64,000 nt of DNA from Chitinophagales bacterium (GCA_013001465.1 JABDMM010000128.1:257-64256); one strand, 5' to 3'; counted from the first letter of the stretch, positions 20,431-51,401 are shown. The notes: generated by a model not told the origin, from the sequence alone. Program-made: numbers and translations.

Positions 20431-21840
20431 CTATTTATTGATTATCAGCTTTTTAACGAACGAATAGTTGGAGGATTTGATGTGGATCAGATAAGTTCCT
20501 GAAGGAATTCCAGTTAATTCTATCTGATTGCTAGTTCTGTTGTCAAATGTTTGTATTTCAAGGCCTTTAAGATCACGTACTACTATGTTTACAAATTCCA
20601 TACCTTCAGGAAGTGAGATATTAAATCTGCCATTATTTGGATTTGGGTAGATCGATACCTCACTACTTAGATCTCTTTCATTTATTCCTGTAGCCGATTC
20701 GCAGGAATCTTCCTGAAGTTCAAATGATCCAATATCCATTTTCCCATCGTAGTTCCTGTTTCTTCCTCGTTGATCAACTATTTGGTTTCCTATACTATCT
20801 CCTTTATTGATTGCAGGACTCAGACATATGAGAGCATGAGTCTTAGTAAATCCACCATTATATGCTAACGGTTCGATCAATGGATCGATAGGATTATCCG
20901 GAAAGCCAAAAATATCACCGGTAGAGCCTATGGCACTTGTAAGAAAGCTAATATCTCCGATCAAATTATATCCATGGGAAACAACATCAGTTCCATTTGG
21001 ATCATGTACATCTGGTCCGGCTACCGATGCTGAATTGAGCGCTATCAATGAATGTGAGCCGTACAAAAACCCTTTTTGATACACGTTAAAGAGACCGCCT
21101 CCACGTTCTGAGTCGTTGAGCACCATTGTGGTATGAGAAATATCAGTTAAGGCAGAATTGTAAATACCACCTCCGAATTTTCTGCACTTATTTGAACTGA
21201 GTGTAGAGTTGATATAGATAGCAGTGCCCATTAAATGGGAGACCCCGCCACCGTGGAGACCTAATGCCTCATTATTGTTTATTGTAGATCTGTCAAAAAT
21301 TACATATCCAAAATTGATCACTCCTCCACCATCGGAGTTGGCGATGTTTCTCTCAATTGTAGTTTCGATCGCGAATAGGTTTGTTGAGCTATCATTGTAT
21401 ATTCCACCTCCATACTCCGCTGTATTGTGAGCAACTCTACTCCTGAAAAGTGAAAGGTTCCCTTCATTGTATATACCTCCTCCAAAATCGGCAGTTCCTC
21501 CAATTATATTGACATAATTGATCCTGCACGTACTTCCTTTCGATATTTTTACAATTCGAATAGAATCATGGGTCGAGATCGTAAGATTCGTATCGGGAAA
21601 CCCTATTATGGTTATGTTTTTTGAAATAAGTAGTTCCGAAGAGTCAATCCAAATGGTGTCTCCCTTAAGATTTGACCCAAAAAAGATACTGTCACCACTT
21701 TCAGCGATGGAAATGACATTTCTAAGAGAGTTCACATCGTCGTCTTCTGAATTAGTAACGACATGCAGTGTTTGGCTATTTGCAATTGTAGCTAATCCGA
21801 ACATCAACAATGCACAGTAAAATACTGATTTACGGAACAT
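20431..21840 (-). CDS. Secreted right-handed beta-helix (Pmp-like repeat) protein with T9SS C-terminal sorting domain
   Basis: Signal peptide. Repeated 'GGGIYN/GGGVIN/GGGLFN' turns. C-terminus 'VSIYPNPNNGRFNISL...GTYLIHIKS...KKLIINK' is typical of Por_Secre_tail. Confidence 0.75.
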   Translation of the reverse strand: MFRKSVFYCALLMFGLATIANSQTLHVVTNSEDDDVNSLRNVISIAESGDSIFFGSNLKGDTIWIDSSELLISKNITIIGFPDTNLTISTHDSIRIVKISKGSTCRINYVNIIGGTADFGGGIYNEGNLSLFRSRVAHNTAEYGGGIYNDSSTNLFAIETTIERNIANSDGGGVINFGYVIFDRSTINNNEALGLHGGGVSHLMGTAIYINSTLSSNKCRKFGGGIYNSALTDISHTTMVLNDSERGGGLFNVYQKGFLYGSHSLIALNSASVAGPDVHDPNGTDVVSHGYNLIGDISFLTSAIGSTGDIFGFPDNPIDPLIEPLAYNGGFTKTHALICLSPAINKGDSIGNQIVDQRGRNRNYDGKMDIGSFELQEDSCESATGINERDLSSEVSIYPNPNNGRFNISLPEGMEFVNIVVRDLKGLEIQTFDNRTSNQIELTGIPSGTYLIHIKSSNYSFVKKLIINK

Positions 21841-37085: not shown

Positions 37086-37102
37086 ACAGAAGGAATAAAA
37101 AA

Positions 37103-37125
37103 AGCCCGCACAGGCAATGCGGGCT
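37103..37125 (-). terminator. Rho-independent terminator downstream of metalloprotease gene 37152-38942
   Basis: Stem agcccgca pairs with tgcgggct, with a 7-nt loop. On the - strand it is followed by a T-run (aaaaaaa at 37096-37102 on +). Confidence 0.75.
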
Positions 37126-37151
37126 TTATGGCATATGAAATATGCTTAGGA

Positions 37152-45802: not shown

Positions 45803-46379
45803 ATTGCTTTATAAACCTTCCTCTAAGATCTATCCCATTAAACAGGCGGTAGAAATATACTCCTTTTGGTAAGCTACTAATGTTGGAAGAATATTTGTTA
45901 CCAATTGTTGATCCCGTTTTGATCATTTGGCCATTTCCATTATAAATTTCGATATGCATCGGTTTTGAGAATGGATTCTCAAAATAGATCGACAAATTAT
46001 CACTTACAGGATTCGGTACGACCACCGTTGAGTTATCGAGTATAAATATGCATTGAGCTTCTGAAGTTTCAATTTGACCGAAGCGAATGCGGTAATAATT
46101 TTTGGAATTTTCTTTTGGATCTGTGTGTGTAAATTGATAAGGTACATCGAAATTTGCCGATCCACAGGTTCCAAAAACTTCATGAATACGTGAATAGTTT
46201 ATGCTGTCGGGACTATGTTCCACAATCATTCCATCACAAGTACTACCTTCAATAATTACCCACCGAATCACCACACCACTATCACCTTCGGTTGGAAGAA
46301 AATATTCATACTCGAATCCCTGGGCAAAAGAAACAACGGAGCTGATAGTTAGAAAAAAGCAGTAAATGAATGCTTTCAT
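45801..46379 (-). CDS. Small secreted protein with T9SS C-terminal sorting domain
   Basis: Signal peptide 'FFLTISSVVSFAQ'. C-terminus 'VVPNPVSDNLSIYFEN...GVYFYRLFNG'. Confidence 0.65.
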   Translation of the reverse strand: MKAFIYCFFLTISSVVSFAQGFEYEYFLPTEGDSGVVIRWVIIEGSTCDGMIVEHSPDSINYSRIHEVFGTCGSANFDVPYQFTHTDPKENSKNYYRIRFGQIETSEAQCIFILDNSTVVVPNPVSDNLSIYFENPFSKPMHIEIYNGNGQMIKTGSTIGNKYSSNISSLPKGVYFYRLFNGIDLRGRFIKQ

Positions 46380-46440
46380 TGTACAATTCTAACTGAAAAT
46401 ATTATCAATTAGTATTTGGGAACGTCATAAGCATTTCAAT

Positions 46441-46478
46441 AATAATCCCGGGTCATCTTTCAAAGATCCGGGATTATT
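46441..46478 (-). terminator. Hairpin downstream of metalloprotease gene 46493-48298 (possible terminator)
   Basis: Stem aataatcccgg (46441-46451) pairs with ccgggattatt (46468-46478). The trailing U-run on the - strand is weak. Confidence 0.4.
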
Positions 46479-46492
46479 ATTGTTAATTTCTA

Positions 46493-48298
46493 TTACCTGA
46501 TGATGGTTAGTTTTTGGTTGATAGTTGCATCATCAATGGTCAGAGCGACCATATAGTTTCCGGCAGATAACCTACCTCCATTGATCTGTAGAGTATGCAT
46601 ACCAGAGTTGTGAAATGCTTCAGAAACTGTTCTGTCGATCAGCTTACCCTCAACATCATAAACACTCAGGCTAACGTACCCATCCAGGTTGAGATAGAAC
46701 TCAATATTGACCATATCTGACGCTGGATTCGGAAATAGGTTAACTCGTGTATCTTCAAGATTAATCATAGTTTCTGTTTTATTCTGAACAATAACTTCGT
46801 CGGCTTGCGGACTTATTACCGGCCCACAGTTTTCTCTGTATGCCCGAAAGTCACTACCCGAGTGTGCCCAGAATCCTTCGCCAAGCGTAACTCCCGTTGT
46901 TGCCCGAAAAGATCCTTGCGATCCGCTATGGAACTCAAATTGATTGCTTCCTGCGCCAGTATAACCAACTTCATCATTAGCTGCAAAATGAACAGCTTCC
47001 TTATTGAACCAGTCATAATTGCTTCCATAAGTAACAACGTTGCCAACCACTCTGTGATCTACAACTGTAGCATCATTTGTATTCAATATGTCAGTATTTC
47101 TATTATTAGCAGATCCTTTTGCGTAGTTAATACTGTTGCAATTCCATGTGCCGCTATTGTCTGAAAACACATTATCTCTGCCACAGGTACCAACCCCACA
47201 TGCTTGCTGATATGCCATAATAGTCCGGAAGCAGCCTGTTGAAGGTTCACCCCAGCCAGCAAATGGAGCTGTGCCCGGCTCGATCGTATTGATTAGATCA
47301 TGTGTACAGGTGAAATTATGAGCGAGCTCATGTTGAAACGTTAATGAGTTAAAATTACCAGAGCCTGTTGTACTTAGCGCTTTAGTTGGGTCGAGCGAAA
47401 TGATCGTCGCTCCTGCACCACCTGCAAATAAAAGCGACACCTGATCTGCTGACCAAAGATTTCTCCATGTATGTGCGATATCCATAAATCCATCCGCGGG
47501 ATCTATTAATCGATTCCTGTGAACGAATGCACTGAATGTATCTTCGAAATAAGTGATTTCTTTCACTGCTGCGATCTCCCATTGAAAATTGACATTACTA
47601 TTGTTAGCACCTGTATTTGCTAATGCCATTTGATTTATCGCTTCGCTCAGGATGTCAGCATAGATTGCATCAATTGCAGACGTGTAGACAATAAGTACTC
47701 GGATATTGCATTCACCGGTTCCTCTTCTATTGATGTTTTGTGCTGTCATTATTTGCCTTTCATCCATATTAGAATATGAATTAGGATCAATATCTTTTCT
47801 TACAGGAAAATCATCCAGCCTATCATTGTGGTCATCAGTCTCACACTGCTTCACGTTTTCTATATTCACTTCACCTAATGTGTGTATTCCACCTGTAAGT
47901 GGACGTAAATTGAAGATAAGTCCATCGATTTTTATATGTCCTACGACATTGTCATCGTTGATCACAAAATGCGCATGATCGTTTGTTCCGGGTATTTTAC
48001 CTATCCAAAGTTTCCTGTTAAGGTTAGCATTGTTCTGTATGTCTTCTTTGATAAACTCAAAAAAGTGATTGTATAATCTAATGCTAATACGGTTGTGATC
48101 AAACTGTTCAACATTAACGGAGACGAGATCATATTCATAGTACTGATTATTGTTTTGATCTGCGTCGAAGTAATGTTGTTGTTTCTCGCTTAACTCAATA
48201 TTGTCGAGGTAATTGAGAAGATCTCCGGTTTGTTCAGCGAAGGCATTTGTGCATACCAACATTATTATGACGGTAATGCAATGTTTAAGATTTTTCAT
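46493..48298 (-). CDS. Secreted reprolysin/metzincin-like Zn-metalloprotease with T9SS C-terminal sorting domain (module 2, 'B2')
   Basis: Signal peptide. Zinc motif 'FQHELAHNFTCTHD' (nt 47297-47335). C-terminus 'LFPNPASDMVNIEFYL...GNYMVALTIDD'. It aligns with 37152-38942 along its full length. Confidence 0.75.
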   Translation of the reverse strand: MKNLKHCITVIIMLVCTNAFAEQTGDLLNYLDNIELSEKQQHYFDADQNNNQYYEYDLVSVNVEQFDHNRISIRLYNHFFEFIKEDIQNNANLNRKLWIGKIPGTNDHAHFVINDDNVVGHIKIDGLIFNLRPLTGGIHTLGEVNIENVKQCETDDHNDRLDDFPVRKDIDPNSYSNMDERQIMTAQNINRRGTGECNIRVLIVYTSAIDAIYADILSEAINQMALANTGANNSNVNFQWEIAAVKEITYFEDTFSAFVHRNRLIDPADGFMDIAHTWRNLWSADQVSLLFAGGAGATIISLDPTKALSTTGSGNFNSLTFQHELAHNFTCTHDLINTIEPGTAPFAGWGEPSTGCFRTIMAYQQACGVGTCGRDNVFSDNSGTWNCNSINYAKGSANNRNTDILNTNDATVVDHRVVGNVVTYGSNYDWFNKEAVHFAANDEVGYTGAGSNQFEFHSGSQGSFRATTGVTLGEGFWAHSGSDFRAYRENCGPVISPQADEVIVQNKTETMINLEDTRVNLFPNPASDMVNIEFYLNLDGYVSLSVYDVEGKLIDRTVSEAFHNSGMHTLQINGGRLSAGNYMVALTIDDATINQKLTIIR

Positions 48299-48308
48299 AT
48301 GCTCATCC

Positions 48309-49730
48309 TTACTTTGAAGACTCTAATTCTTGAATACGGACTTGCATTGCATCATTGTCTTTTTTAAGTTGGATAAGATGCAATGTAAGTTCTTCGATTT
48401 TTTCGAGTAACCTGGCGTCCATTTTTGCCAGTTCGTAACCCTGGGACTCTATTTCGGCAGCAGCAGGGACGCCAGGTAAGTGATTTTTTTCCATAATAAA
48501 TTGTTCGATCTCAGTAATTGTCGGCAGATCGTAATCAGCAGCGAAGACGTAATCCGGCCAGCTTCCTGAACTTAGAACGCGCACTTCCTCGCATATTAGT
48601 TTTCCATCGATCGCGGCTTTATAACCAGTAGCACCAGCAATAGTCCCTACGTGAAGATTACCAGAAACATATAATCCATTGGCCGGACCTTGGGAAAGTG
48701 AACCAACGGAAACGCTACCATTTTCGTGAACTCTAAGTTTTGTAGCCCCGTTTACCTGCACTCGCAATGCGTTTTGTGCTGCATCGGAATTGATATGAAC
48801 TTTATCAGTAGGTGTTGAAGTTCCAAAACCGGTATTACCGGTAAAATCTGCATCACCATTTACGGTCAAAGGATTTGAAGGCGAAGCAGAGTGTATCCCA
48901 ACATTTCCTGTCGTTCCAATATAAAATCGAGTTGTTCCATCTGTTCTGGCTCGCATTACTTCTTCCCCAGGAGAAGCATTTACGGTGAGTTTAGCCATGG
49001 TTCCTCCAACATCACCAATAGCAGCTTTACCGGTTGCTACATGGAAGTTTTCCCCCGGAGTTGTAGTTCCAATTCCAACCGGACCATCAAAGCTGGCATC
49101 TCCATCAACTGTGAGGAGATTGGGTACGGTTGCAGTTCCAATACCAACTTCACCTTGTGCATTAATGATAAACTGTGTTACCCCATTGATTCGGCCCCGG
49201 AAAATTTCTTCGTTTAGGGAAGCATTTACCGTGAGTCGGGATAGAACACCGCCAGAAGCGCCTATAAGAGCTTTACCAGTTGCGACATGAAGCTTTGCTG
49301 CTGGTGTTGCAGTTCCTATACCTACATTTCCTCCAGTTAACAAATCACCGGTGTTTGCACCTATACTGAAAATACTGGATGCATTTGCAGTTCTGAATTC
49401 GTAGACAGAATTGGTTGCATTGAAAAACAAACCATAATTCTTTGCAGCACTGTAACGGAAAGCATATCGGTCGCTATCTATTAACAGGTCACTGCTGGTG
49501 TTAAATTTAATGTCTGTCTTAAAATTACCATTGTTGGCATCGATCTGGAATATACCAGTTGCCGATCCATTCCTGAGATCAAATGATGCATCTGTCTCAT
49601 TAAAATACATTCCAAAGTTGTTATTCACAGAATAGCGGAATGCATAAGTGTTACCGGGAATGGTGATCGTTTGTGCAGAGACTATTAGTCCGGCACTTAA
49701 CGCGATTAAAAAGAAGAGTAAATTTTTCAT
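48309..49730 (-). CDS. Secreted fibre-like repeat protein with the 'WPDYVF...HLPGVP...EELTLH' C-terminal module (module 2, 'A2')
   Basis: Signal peptide. Two N-terminal 'YAFRYS..N(F/Y)G(M/L)(Y/F)FN' repeats. 'GNVGIGTATPAAKLHV'-type fibre repeats. The C-terminal module is shared with 38986-40545. Confidence 0.65.
   Translation of the reverse strand: MKNLLFFLIALSAGLIVSAQTITIPGNTYAFRYSVNNNFGMYFNETDASFDLRNGSATGIFQIDANNGNFKTDIKFNTSSDLLIDSDRYAFRYSAAKNYGLFFNATNSVYEFRTANASSIFSIGANTGDLLTGGNVGIGTATPAAKLHVATGKALIGASGGVLSRLTVNASLNEEIFRGRINGVTQFIINAQGEVGIGTATVPNLLTVDGDASFDGPVGIGTTTPGENFHVATGKAAIGDVGGTMAKLTVNASPGEEVMRARTDGTTRFYIGTTGNVGIHSASPSNPLTVNGDADFTGNTGFGTSTPTDKVHINSDAAQNALRVQVNGATKLRVHENGSVSVGSLSQGPANGLYVSGNLHVGTIAGATGYKAAIDGKLICEEVRVLSSGSWPDYVFAADYDLPTITEIEQFIMEKNHLPGVPAAAEIESQGYELAKMDARLLEKIEELTLHLIQLKKDNDAMQVRIQELESSK
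48843..49334 (-). repeat. About 80-aa tandem coding duplication inside A2
   Basis: aa 133-211 'GNVGIGTATPAAKLHVATGKALIG...LTVNASLNEE...GEVGIGTATVPNLLTVDGDASF' aligns with aa 216-296 'GPVGIGTTTPGENFHVATGKAAIG...LTVNASPGEE...GNVGIHSASPSNPLTVNGDADF'. Confidence 0.75.
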
Positions 49731-49751
49731 GATGATATTTTTTTGTTAAAT

Positions 49752-49759
49752 CAAATGTA
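49752..49759 (-). promoter_or_regulatory. Candidate -7 promoter element (TACATTTG on the - strand) upstream of A2
   Basis: Matches TAnnTTTG, 22 nt upstream of the ATG at 49730. A TTTG lies 24 nt further upstream (49784-49787). Confidence 0.35.
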
Positions 49760-49877
49760 TGCAGCTTATCAGCTGATTTTAAGCAAAAAAAACACAAAAA
49801 TAAGGTCTTGAAAGAGTAATAAAACATTATAAAAGGTTGTAAATTAGAATAATAGTTTATAATAAATATTGAGTTGA

Positions 49878-51401
49878 ATGAACAGATTGAATCAGCTTGT
49901 CGACTCTTTAAGTCGGACAGAAAAGGGATATTTTCGGAAATATTGTAAGGTTTACAGCAATGGCAAACTTCATAAATATCTGAAAGTCTTTGATGCGATT
50001 GATAAAGCTCCACCTGATAGTGGAGATGATTACATCAAAAAGAAATTCGAGAAAGAGACCTTTAGCAATAATTATCCTGTTACAAAGAAGTACTTATTCG
50101 AGCAAATTCTTAAGAGCCTTGAACTCTACAATTCAGGAAAAAGTATTCACAAAAAAATTGAATGGCTGATAAACAAGGCAGAATTGTTGTATTCCAAAAG
50201 TCTCATAAACGAGTGCCTACAGTCTTTAAAAAGGGCGAGAAAACTTGCTTATCAGACTGATGAATTTCCTTACATACTGCAGATCATTTCCTTTGAAAAA
50301 AAAATTGGTGGTGCGCATCGTTACAAAGGGATTTATAAACGATTTAAAACCCTTCTGGATGAAGAAATGGATGTCCTCGACAAGATGAAGAATTATAGTG
50401 AGATCCAATTGATCTATTACAAAGTGTTTGAAACGATAAAAAAAGACAGGTCACTTCGGACGAAAAGAGATTTGAAGCTCCTCAATAAAATGGTGCAGAC
50501 TCCAATTTTATCCGATATCTCCAGCGCAAAAACGGTAAGAGCAAAAATTACATTTTGCTCGACCTGGACATTTTATTATGATCTTGCGGGTGAATACGAC
50601 GAAGCTTATGAGTATGCTAAAAAGCTTGTCGGGATTTGGGAAGATAATCCTGTTCACATCAATGAATATCCTGACCGTTATTTGGCAGCGAACCAGAATT
50701 TTCTAAATCGATGTTATCGCCTGAAAAGATATGAAGAGTTTCCTGCAGTTTTGGATAAGTTAAAGCTTATTAAACCAACCAGCAAGGAAATGGAGGTTAC
50801 ATACTTTGAGATGATGTCCCACTTCGAGATGCTTTATGTCAATCAAACGCGAAATGAGAGAAGGGCCAGAGCCCTTTTTAAAGAGATAGAGCAAGGATTG
50901 GAAAACTATAAAACACGGATCAAGACTAATTATCGTAATCTATTTTGCTATAATATTTGCGTTGAATTGATGTCTTTGGGCGAATATGATGAGGCTTTAA
51001 GTTGGGCTAACAAAATTATACAAAAGCAAAAATTAGATATCCAACAGGATCTCATGTGGTTTTTAAGGCTTTTGTATTTGCTGATCCACCTGGAACTTGG
51101 AAATAAAACGATCATTGAATATGAACTCAGATCGATCAATCGCTACCTGGAGTCTGAAAAGAGGGGGCATAAGTTTGAGAGTATTTTTCTCGAGTTTATA
51201 AAAGAAGCTACTGAACAGCTTCATATTGGTCATCCCAGGAAGTTGTACAGGAAGTATGCCGAAAAAATTCAGCTTTTAAAGGCTGACAAATTCGAGAAGA
51301 ATGTTTTTGATTACTTTTCATTCGACTCGTTTTTACTCGCGAAAGCACATGGGTTGTCATTAAGGGAATACGAGGAGAAATATGAAGATCATGCGTCGTA
51401 G
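49878..51401 (+). CDS. Hypothetical all-helical (TPR-like) protein, divergently transcribed from module 2
   Basis: 507 aa rich in K/E/L/Y with no TM helix or signal peptide. The amphipathic helical-repeat character is e.g. 'GEYDEAYEYAKKLV' and 'GEYDEALSWANKII'. Confidence 0.5.
   Translation: MNRLNQLVDSLSRTEKGYFRKYCKVYSNGKLHKYLKVFDAIDKAPPDSGDDYIKKKFEKETFSNNYPVTKKYLFEQILKSLELYNSGKSIHKKIEWLINKAELLYSKSLINECLQSLKRARKLAYQTDEFPYILQIISFEKKIGGAHRYKGIYKRFKTLLDEEMDVLDKMKNYSEIQLIYYKVFETIKKDRSLRTKRDLKLLNKMVQTPILSDISSAKTVRAKITFCSTWTFYYDLAGEYDEAYEYAKKLVGIWEDNPVHINEYPDRYLAANQNFLNRCYRLKRYEEFPAVLDKLKLIKPTSKEMEVTYFEMMSHFEMLYVNQTRNERRARALFKEIEQGLENYKTRIKTNYRNLFCYNICVELMSLGEYDEALSWANKIIQKQKLDIQQDLMWFLRLLYLLIHLELGNKTIIEYELRSINRYLESEKRGHKFESIFLEFIKEATEQLHIGHPRKLYRKYAEKIQLLKADKFEKNVFDYFSFDSFLLAKAHGLSLREYEEKYEDHAS

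Follow-up and report, generated by a model that had tools for sequence, protein, structure and literature searches.

Tail-fibre-like mosaic proteins encoded beside T9SS-sorted metalloproteases in a Chitinophagales bacterium

To our knowledge, the mosaic adhesive fibres of bacteria have so far been described only for the predator Bdellovibrio (2024). These mosaic adhesive trimer (MAT) fibres of Bdellovibrio bacteriovorus are represented by several structures (Caulton et al. 2024, PMC10769870; PDB 8OND, 8ONC, 8OML and 8ONF). Here we report on a 64,000-nucleotide stretch of a Chitinophagales metagenome-assembled genome (MAG) (GCA_013001465.1, JABDMM010000128.1:257-64256; hereafter the window) that contains two minus-strand gene pairs, A1-B1 and A2-B2. 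In each pair, a gene for a tail-fibre-like protein (A) is followed by a gene for a metalloprotease (B) with a type IX secretion system (T9SS) sorting domain. On balance, we favour with moderate confidence a reading in which A2 and A1 are Sec-exported, probably homotrimeric, tail-fibre-like mosaic fibres that work with a co-transcribed secreted hydrolase.

The family to which A1 and A2 belong, which we call the WPDYVF family after a motif in its C-terminal domain, resembles the MAT family in several ways. Both are cellular families that resemble phage tail fibres and are present as many paralogues. The MAT shaft is a beta-helix with capping loops of the V-G-x-pi-x-x-P-x-x-x-L type and the shaft of the WPDYVF family is predicted to resemble it; MAT structures give the best structural matches to a model of A2. 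Both are mosaics with one constant end and swapped parts elsewhere, and both have versions that end in an S74 domain and versions that do not. The two families also differ. In MAT it is the N-terminal domain that stays constant, with a variable C-terminal tip, whereas the WPDYVF family has the reverse polarity; its proteins are about 200-800 amino acids (aa) long, as against about 1,000 aa for MAT. The WPDYVF domain has no sequence match among solved structures, the family is from the Bacteroidota lineage, and it is known from sequences and models alone. Moreover, its genes are operonically linked to genes for T9SS hydrolases, a link not mentioned in the parts of the MAT account consulted.

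Three further systems invite comparison. The tail fibres and tailspikes that end in S74 chaperones (PF13884; K1F endosialidase, T5 pb1, MyRF ICA) share with A2, as predicted for it, a triple-beta-helix-type shaft with a GIGT/VGxG cap directly before a helical, coiled-coil-like C-terminal domain, and one relative of A2 has S74 at the position of A2's WPDYVF domain. The WPDYVF domain itself has neither sequence or profile similarity to S74 nor its Ser-Lys dyad, and two or three copies of it can be present in one protein. Among T9SS type A cargo proteins (TIGR04183 / PF18962), B1, B2 and a third protein of 192 aa from the window are standard members, made up of signal peptide, enzyme domain, GCX_COOH and Por_Secre_tail. 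The fibre protein A, by contrast, lacks the C-terminal sorting domain of about 75 aa, and a fibre gene systematically placed directly upstream of such cargo was not found in the literature searched. Finally, the trimeric autotransporter adhesins (YadA/Hia) and bacterial collagen-like proteins are also modular, repetitive and presumably trimeric fibres with coiled coils, and some relatives of A2 contain collagen repeats. What sets A apart from the autotransporters is that it lacks a YadA-like beta-barrel anchor and any Pfam domain of the head, neck or stalk kind, and that its C-terminal end is, by prediction, helical and soluble.

Mosaic architecture of A2 and A1

We compared regions of the two proteins by global alignment, scored against 100 shuffles (z). 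A2 (features in Table 1) begins with a Sec signal peptide that is predicted to be cleaved before Q20; a Gln at the new N-terminus agrees with the Bacteroidetes 'Q-rule' as given in the abstract of PMC10653852. The two units of the N-terminal repeat, found as hidden Markov model (HMM) domains at residues 21-73 and 82-133, are 36% identical (z=13.7). They are all-beta in the AlphaFold2 (AF2) model, with a predicted local distance difference test score (pLDDT) above 90, and a profile of the repeat found no relative among PDB sequences, with chance-level matches at most. The shaft that follows contains a tandem duplication of 82 aa, evident in a self dot-plot and by alignment (residues 126-207 versus 208-289; 52% identity, z=25), and a partial third copy extends to about residue 318. 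It includes five G-x-V-G-I-G/H-T/S units. Their extended 'capping-loop'-like form, GxVGIGTxxPxxxLxV, is a close variant, one residue longer, of the capping-loop consensus V-G-G/N-pi-x-x-P-x-x-x-L that PMC10769870 describes for trimeric beta-helices upstream of S74 chaperones. A2 belongs to no Pfam or NCBIfam family, and its whole sequence found nothing beyond chance level among PDB sequences.

A1 follows the same plan, with an A2-type signal peptide, an N-terminal double repeat (residues 33-141), a centre (142-401) and a C-terminal domain (402-519). Its centre is composed of 11 [YF]G[VLCFI]x units of the YG(V/L)Y type, which recur every 15-18 aa and are grouped into two blocks, 177-265 and 311-390. 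At the edges of the centre are two degenerate GxxxIGT units (137-152 and 404-419). Since A1 retains these units at the borders, the boundaries of the swap lie inside a type of shaft element that both proteins have in common. No T9SS sorting domain was found in A1 or A2 with Pfam or NCBIfam, unlike in B1, B2 and the 192-aa open reading frame (ORF).

How similar are the two proteins, and where? Composition-corrected BLASTP aligns A2 with A1 at E=9e-51 and 28% overall identity. The N-terminal repeats are 34% identical (z=21) and the C-terminal 119 aa are 44% identical (z=46); the centres have no significant similarity (z=1.9). A BLOSUM dot-plot gives the same picture, with strong diagonals between A1 30-63 and 87-134 and A2 18-65 and 80-124, in both registers, another between A1 402-510 and A2 355-463, and none beyond the double repeat and the C-terminus. 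The original prediction, made from the DNA by itself, had described this arrangement: a common N-terminal double repeat, a common C-terminus and unrelated middles. All the peptides it quoted are present in A1 and A2, and the termini are indeed far more similar than the centres. The tandem duplication it put at about 80 aa in A2 is the 82-aa one above. The common C-terminus measures 119 aa rather than roughly 95, and A1 has 11 YG(V/L)Y units where about 12 had been counted. It was also right that the duplication is old. Synonymous sites between A1 and A2 are saturated (NG86 yields no dS), and the conserved parts agree at 49-54% of their nucleotides; with dS saturated, regional dN/dS is not interpretable.

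What the original prediction left undiscussed is that its module 2, positions 46493-49730, comprises two minus-strand ORFs, A2 and B2. B1 shares 40% identity with B2 when the whole proteins are aligned. The duplicated unit is the A+B pair, a 'fibre + T9SS metalloprotease' unit.

The fibre-like interpretation gains from structural comparison. The full AF2 model of A2 has a mean pLDDT of 77.5. Foldseek matches it in the PDB to the MAT proteins Bd2133 (E=3.7e-5), Bd3182 (5.6e-4) and Bd1334 (1.5e-3), in each case to the C-terminal beta-helix part, as well as to the tail fibre of phage Mu (1.6e-3), with a weaker match to T4 gp34. Among the PHROGs, A2 matches phrog_9942 'tail fiber protein' (E=2e-9), and its shaft has a weak match to T4 gp36.

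The survey of central repeat types suggested in the original prediction extends the comparison to other members. We collected 32 non-redundant proteins with both termini and clustered their centres, which gave nine or more unrelated groups; the A1 centre stands by itself in one of them, and the A2 centre has a single companion. A swapped centre between A1/A2-type termini is therefore a general pattern. The formula of constant ends and a variable shaft fits A1 and A2; it does not hold family-wide, where the one constant part is the C-terminal domain. An N-terminal repeat of the A1/A2 type is present, in one to three copies, in 38 of 425 sampled proteins with the C-terminal domain, and N-termini across the family vary like the shafts, with LamG, FN3, bactofilin-like and collagen regions. 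In a 731-aa relative, P0046, the C-terminal domain is preceded by 20 collagen G-X-Y triplets and by a mix of A2-type 'LTVN...FRGR...GNVGIGT' units and A1-type YGV repeats. Collagen triple helices are obligate trimers. The presence of collagen and both shaft types before one C-terminal domain thus supports a trimeric, modular fibre.

The WPDYVF domain family and its links to phages and S74

Every one of the best 120 homologues of A2 carries the C-terminal module, whatever lies upstream. Its order is a last GxxxIGT unit, GYxLSVDGK, CEELKVQ, WPDYVF, Y-L, HLPGIPSA-EV, G, EKIEELTLY and a heptad helix, and in an alignment of 36 diverse members 11 columns are invariant and another 11 nearly so. The family is very large. 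An exhaustive HMMER search over 1.84 billion cluster representatives (clusters at 50% identity) returned 37,587 with E<=1e-3, a lower bound for the family, and 17,835 with E<=1e-30. The proteins range in length from 138 to 1,975 aa, and the matches in genomes are almost all from Bacteroidota.

Neither Pfam nor NCBIfam nor any PDB sequence matches the domain, and over the 36 members Pfam gave nothing even at E<=10. PF26696, which the Pfam copy searched does not include, is flagged on some relatives, and no papers on it were retrieved. Searches for the WPDYVF motif likewise retrieved no papers, and topic searches none on this family or on a MAT-like family in Bacteroidota. All the relatives carry the name 'hypothetical' at source. 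The original prediction had allowed that the family might prove to be a known adhesin class; with uniformly 'hypothetical' members and no paper on the family retrieved, it is not one by the records and papers searched.

The AF2 model of the domain, confident with a pLDDT of 87.8, consists of a beta hairpin, the WPDYVF motif in extended form and three helices; the final helix is about 39 residues long and has an a/d heptad pattern. Several proteins (P0013, P0014, P0023 and P0121-P0125) contain two or three copies, and a GIGT unit precedes every copy. We consider fibre oligomerisation and assembly the most likely role of the domain. It is possibly also an attachment or ligand-binding module, with which the multi-copy proteins and the invariant W, D and H residues would fit better. 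One multi-copy protein has copies on either side of a fibronectin type III region, and lengths reach 1,975 aa.

The domain is also found in phages. In 50,697 GenBank phage records the A2 termini are absent, and the single match is to the central shaft only. In IMG/VR, however, the domain is present at 26 loci among 2.9 million viral contigs. At about 10 of these 26 (L102-L110 and L112), from marine metagenomes, it is the C-terminal WPDYVF/coiled-coil domain of proteins that are 559-2,582 aa long and lack a signal peptide, and several of the contigs are those of genuine myoviruses, with genes for tail sheath, tail tube or baseplate wedge nearby. The 2,582-aa protein of L105 matches phrog_18345 as well as phrog_9942 and has a tail sheath gene on its contig, and the protein of L102 adjoins a baseplate wedge gene.

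One relative, from a Parafilimonas MAG (L051:8420-10471), exchanges the domain itself. This protein has a signal peptide, an N-terminal repeat of the A type, a GIGT cap and a YGVYG shaft, and at its C-terminal end Peptidase_S74 (E=5.5e-16) and Por_Secre_tail replace the WPDYVF domain. The S74 ending makes the WPDYVF domain positionally interchangeable with a known trimerising chaperone, and the Por_Secre_tail indicates that a fibre of this type can be a T9SS substrate. This gene is situated some 2 kb downstream of a fibre gene of the WPDYVF type and of an M23-like T9SS gene, and a truncated copy is present at L051:10995-12299.

The equivalence is one of position only, and we reject homology between the two domains. 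Aligned by hhalign with 125 S74 domains, the C-terminal domain scored a probability of 0.15% (as search queries for S74, the K1F endosialidase chaperone gave 3 matches and a metagenomic S74 domain 120). Its sequence has no SDxRxK motif, the site of the Ser-Lys dyad. A Foldseek search of the PDB with its model, in a library assumed to include the K1F and T5 chaperones 3GW6 and 4UW8, returned no S74 structure, and in BFVD the S74 matches were sub-threshold (E 0.7-5).

Partner enzymes and the two window loci

B2 combines a Por_Secre_tail match (E=1.3e-11) with TIGR04183 and GCX_COOH (NCBIfam) and the motif HELAHNFTCTHD; its scores against Reprolysin_3/4/5 are 16.7-17.4, below the cut-offs. B1 exceeds them for Reprolysin_3 (34.8 bits, cut-off 22.4) and Reprolysin_5 (31.7, cut-off 27), and it too has Por_Secre_tail (E=4e-9) and GCX_COOH. 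Set against HExxHxxGxxHD, the motifs HELGHNALCTHD of B1 and HELAHNFTCTHD of B2 keep the three His, the Glu and the Asp, with L or F in place of the motif Gly.

To place these pairs among their relatives we sampled 64 neighbours downstream and 40 upstream of a fibre gene or array. Their classes are Pfam counts; classing of the partners by jackhmmer was dropped, because partners share the GCX_COOH and sorting-domain region and the jackhmmer classes merged. Por_Secre_tail is found in 15 of the 64 downstream neighbours and 2 of the 40 upstream. Sortilin/BNR (12 of 64), reprolysin-like (8), M23 (8), M4 (3), M43 (2) and RHS (3) families are each found downstream and in none of the 40 upstream neighbours, 7 of which are response regulators, a class not listed downstream. 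The enrichment downstream over upstream has a Fisher p of ~1e-10, an approximate value since it counts 36 family matches as 36 proteins and families may overlap.

The genes are also tightly spaced. From the last fibre gene to the downstream neighbour the median gap is about 30 nucleotides (nt), and 13 pairs overlap. Tandem fibre paralogues, two to nine in number, are present at 28 of 85 loci. Those members that carry the N-terminal double repeat have a Zn-metalloprotease partner in 10 of 10 cases, as against 6 of 59 for the others, and in the contexts of close relatives that we examined the order is always a fibre gene, then a T9SS peptidase or a sortilin-like T9SS protein. At L050 the neighbour is trypsin-like.

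Other features recur around the family's genes. Partners of differing enzyme class share a C-terminal region of about 150-200 aa, consisting of GCX_COOH ('3-coathanger stack') and the sorting domain (L002, L024, L040, L041, L051 and L074). Same-strand fibre-enzyme order with short or overlapping spacing is seen as well at L001, L002, L004, L005, L046, L052 and L113-L116. Two-component systems, with a Y_Y_Y/Reg_prop histidine kinase and a LytTR or GerE regulator, often stand beside fibre-enzyme loci (L002, L003, L005 and L115). Arrays of up to nine paralogues of about 200-370 aa, with a constant C-terminal domain and variable N-terminal parts (L015, L017, L022, L032, L061, L062, L011, L016 and L076), are hosted by Pedobacter, Sphingobacteriaceae, Cyclobacteriaceae and Algibacter, and at L011, L016 and L012 the array closes with a protein that matches RHS repeats and is about 1,100 aa long.

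In the window, 10 nt separate the A2 stop from B2, and 43 nt separate A1 from B1. The small T9SS-sorted protein encoded after B2 is possibly the third gene of a module 2 operon; module 1 has no counterpart. The hairpin just beyond this gene is the sole terminator-like site within 45700-50000, with none between B2 and the 192-aa gene, and on sequence grounds it is likely to be the end of an A2-B2-(192 aa) transcript. Similarly, the hairpin past B1 is likely to end an A1-B1 transcript, and the gap between A1 and B1 has no terminator-like site. A sigma-70 promoter scan gave counts equal to shuffle expectation, with a tool that does not cover Bacteroidota promoters. Spotted by eye only, a TAnnTTTG-like box, TACATTTG, lies 5' of A2, and no counterpart was seen 5' of A1. 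The window neighbours of both pairs are housekeeping genes (HAD hydrolase, methyltransferase, PPK2, NUDIX, transglutaminase-like, ArsC, YceI and others), and no phage, extracellular contractile injection system or type VI secretion genes were found around either pair.

Table 1. Features of the window discussed in the text
Feature	Coordinates	Strand	Description
A2	48309-49730	-	473 aa; secreted tail-fibre-like mosaic protein; NNC96154.1, HKN92_11375, 'hypothetical protein'
A2 Sec signal peptide	49674-49730	-	residues 1-19, MKNLLFFLIALSAGLIVSA; read from sequence; AF2 helix 2-13
A2 N-terminal double repeat	49332-49670	-	residues ~21-133; two ~55-aa units, YAFxY...FGxFFN...YEFRN
A2 central shaft	48684-49331	-	residues 134-349; 82-aa unit in 2.3 tandem copies
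A2 C-terminal domain	48312-48683	-	residues 350-473: last GxxxVGT unit, WPDYVF, HLPGVP, EKIEELTL, terminal coiled-coil helix
B2	46493-48298	-	601 aa; secreted metzincin-like (reprolysin-like) metalloprotease, GCX_COOH and T9SS type A sorting domain
Small T9SS-sorted protein	45801-46379	-	192 aa; signal peptide; Por_Secre_tail E=3e-12; 113 nt 3' of B2
Palindromic terminator-like hairpin between convergent genes	45771-45798	.	12-pair stem, 6 GC pairs, T-run
A1 (A2 paralogue)	38986-40545	-	519 aa; NNC96144.1, HKN92_11325, 'hypothetical protein'
B1	37152-38942	-	596 aa; reprolysin-like T9SS metalloprotease with HELGHNALCTHD
Intrinsic-terminator-like hairpin	37101-37127	-	11-pair stem, 6 GC pairs, T-run; 25 nt past B1 stop
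Gene divergent from A2	49878-51401	+	NCBIfam 'BT2802 family ribose utilization protein', E=4e-50, below curated cut-off; tetratricopeptide (TPR)-like repeats
ORF with fourth T9SS sorting-domain match of the window	20431-21840	-	E=2.5e-10 to an ad hoc HMM; no fibre gene adjacent

Favoured reading, alternatives and meaning

How might such a pair work? In the reading we favour, the C-terminal ~120 aa, which follow the last beta-helix capping unit and end in a coiled coil, would serve the oligomerisation and assembly of the fibre. The centre would form a beta-helical shaft of interchangeable repeats, of the GIGT-capped 82-aa kind in A2 or the YG(V/L)Y kind in A1. The N-terminal double beta-repeat marks a sub-family and is a candidate for the distal or binding end. 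Each fibre gene would be co-transcribed with a gene for a T9SS-secreted, reprolysin-like metalloprotease, and the window carries two anciently duplicated cassettes of fibre and secreted hydrolase. The A protein would be trimeric and extracellular, would have a binding function and would be coupled to B physically or functionally; outside the cell, fibre and enzyme would probably cooperate, the former to bind or position and the latter to degrade.

Several observations weigh against this reading. The centre of the A2 model is of moderate quality (pLDDT 39-85), and its Foldseek template modelling (TM) scores are low (0.13-0.16 of the query), which we attribute to the elongated shape of fibres. 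As a monomer, the C-terminal domain has no significant structural match in the PDB by Foldseek and a single borderline one in BFVD (E=6e-3), and its internal copies in some proteins are less suited to a strictly terminal chaperone than to a module for binding or oligomerisation. A carries neither a T9SS sorting domain nor a lipobox or beta-barrel anchor, and has no known route across the outer membrane. Unclassified proteins make up 22 of the 64 downstream neighbours, many members stand in arrays or without an enzyme neighbour, and the synteny statistics are uncorrected for the shared ancestry of the loci.

A bolder proposal, which we hold to be rather unlikely, is that the WPDYVF proteins are phylum-wide Bacteroidota 'guide fibres' that serve secreted weapons and degradative enzymes. 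A phage-derived trimer would be produced along with the T9SS cargo (a metalloprotease, an M23 peptidoglycan hydrolase or a BNR/sortilin-like protein) or RHS protein encoded immediately downstream, dock to it, leave the cell piggy-back on its partner's sorting domain, and bring it to a given target surface by means of its swappable N-terminal and shaft modules. The whole would be a modular, retargetable device for enzyme delivery, comparable to phage receptor-binding proteins and MAT.

Two other readings turn the relation between the partners around, and we consider both improbable. In one, B is a trans-acting maturation protease that removes the WPDYVF domain, taken to be non-catalytic, or another segment of the fibre, the pair being a unit of substrate and processing enzyme. 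In S74 fibres the C-terminal chaperone self-cleaves after trimerisation; the WPDYVF domain is in the S74 position, and one relative has S74 instead. The 21 peptidase-family matches among the 64 downstream neighbours, the trypsin-like neighbour at L050, the tight or overlapping spacing and the Zn-metalloprotease beside 10 of 10 fibres with the N-terminal repeat would all suit such a unit. It does not explain the non-protease partners, sortilin/BNR-like (12) and RHS (3), or the long fibre arrays with one partner or none. Moreover, B has a T9SS signal and would cross the outer membrane, for which A has no known route, and no conserved cleavage motif was identified. In the other reading, A is no adhesive fibre; located in the periplasm or secreted, it would serve the downstream T9SS cargo as an accessory factor, be it chaperone, inhibitor or export adaptor. 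Its C-terminal domain would recognise something the partners have in common, such as the GCX_COOH/sorting region, for piggy-back export or to keep the enzyme inactive until its release. That A has no outer-membrane export signal where its partners often have one, that the partner classes share the C-terminal GCX_COOH and sorting-domain region, and that the A-then-B order is conserved, with stop and start codons that sometimes overlap, are all consistent with this. A tail-fibre-like shaft, collagen relatives and the presence of the domain at phage fibre ends would, however, be unexpected for a chaperone or an inhibitor. The RHS partners and many other neighbours have no sorting domain (it is present in 15 of 64, and Pfam finds none in the RHS partners at L011 and L016), and the arrays of up to nine paralogues argue for a diversified binding repertoire and against an accessory factor.

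Could A1 and A2 be remnants of prophage or tailocin tail fibres without cellular function? Their structural and PHROG matches are to tail fibres, and the C-terminal domain is found in myovirus tail fibres. Yet A1 and A2 have Sec signal peptides and the phage versions have none, their ORFs are intact after a duplication old enough to saturate dS, and their flanks are housekeeping genes without phage genes. The domain is present in more than 37,000 cellular clusters, compared with 26 loci among 2.9 million viral contigs, and the A2 termini are found in 0 of 50,697 phage records. On the strength of the signal peptides, intact ORFs, housekeeping flanks and cellular spread we reject this explanation as very unlikely. 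Hardly credible at all is that the terminal resemblance is a compositional or low-complexity artefact between unrelated repeat proteins. A1 and A2 are indeed repetitive and rich in G, S, T and N, but the shuffles (z of 21 and 46 for the N- and C-termini), the composition-corrected BLASTP (E=9e-51) and the 11 invariant and 11 nearly invariant columns of the 36-sequence C-terminal alignment all speak against it, and we reject it too.

Chimeric trimeric bacterial fibres are already known, as MAT and phage receptor-binding proteins. What we did not find in the sources searched are this C-terminal domain, the polarity with a constant C-terminal end, the size of the family and the operonic coupling to T9SS cargo.

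Bacteroidota dominate polymer degradation in soils, oceans and guts. If the reading we favour is true, they encode tens of thousands of unannotated tail-fibre-like mosaic proteins, and the concept of mosaic adhesive fibres would widen from Bdellovibrio to a whole phylum. Fibre diversification would be tied to T9SS proteases, peptidoglycan hydrolases and RHS proteins, which suggests a testable mechanism for the targeting of secreted enzymes and toxins. The alignment of the C-terminal domain would allow more than 37,000 protein clusters to be named, and the swappable modules of these proteins could be a natural library of binding specificities.

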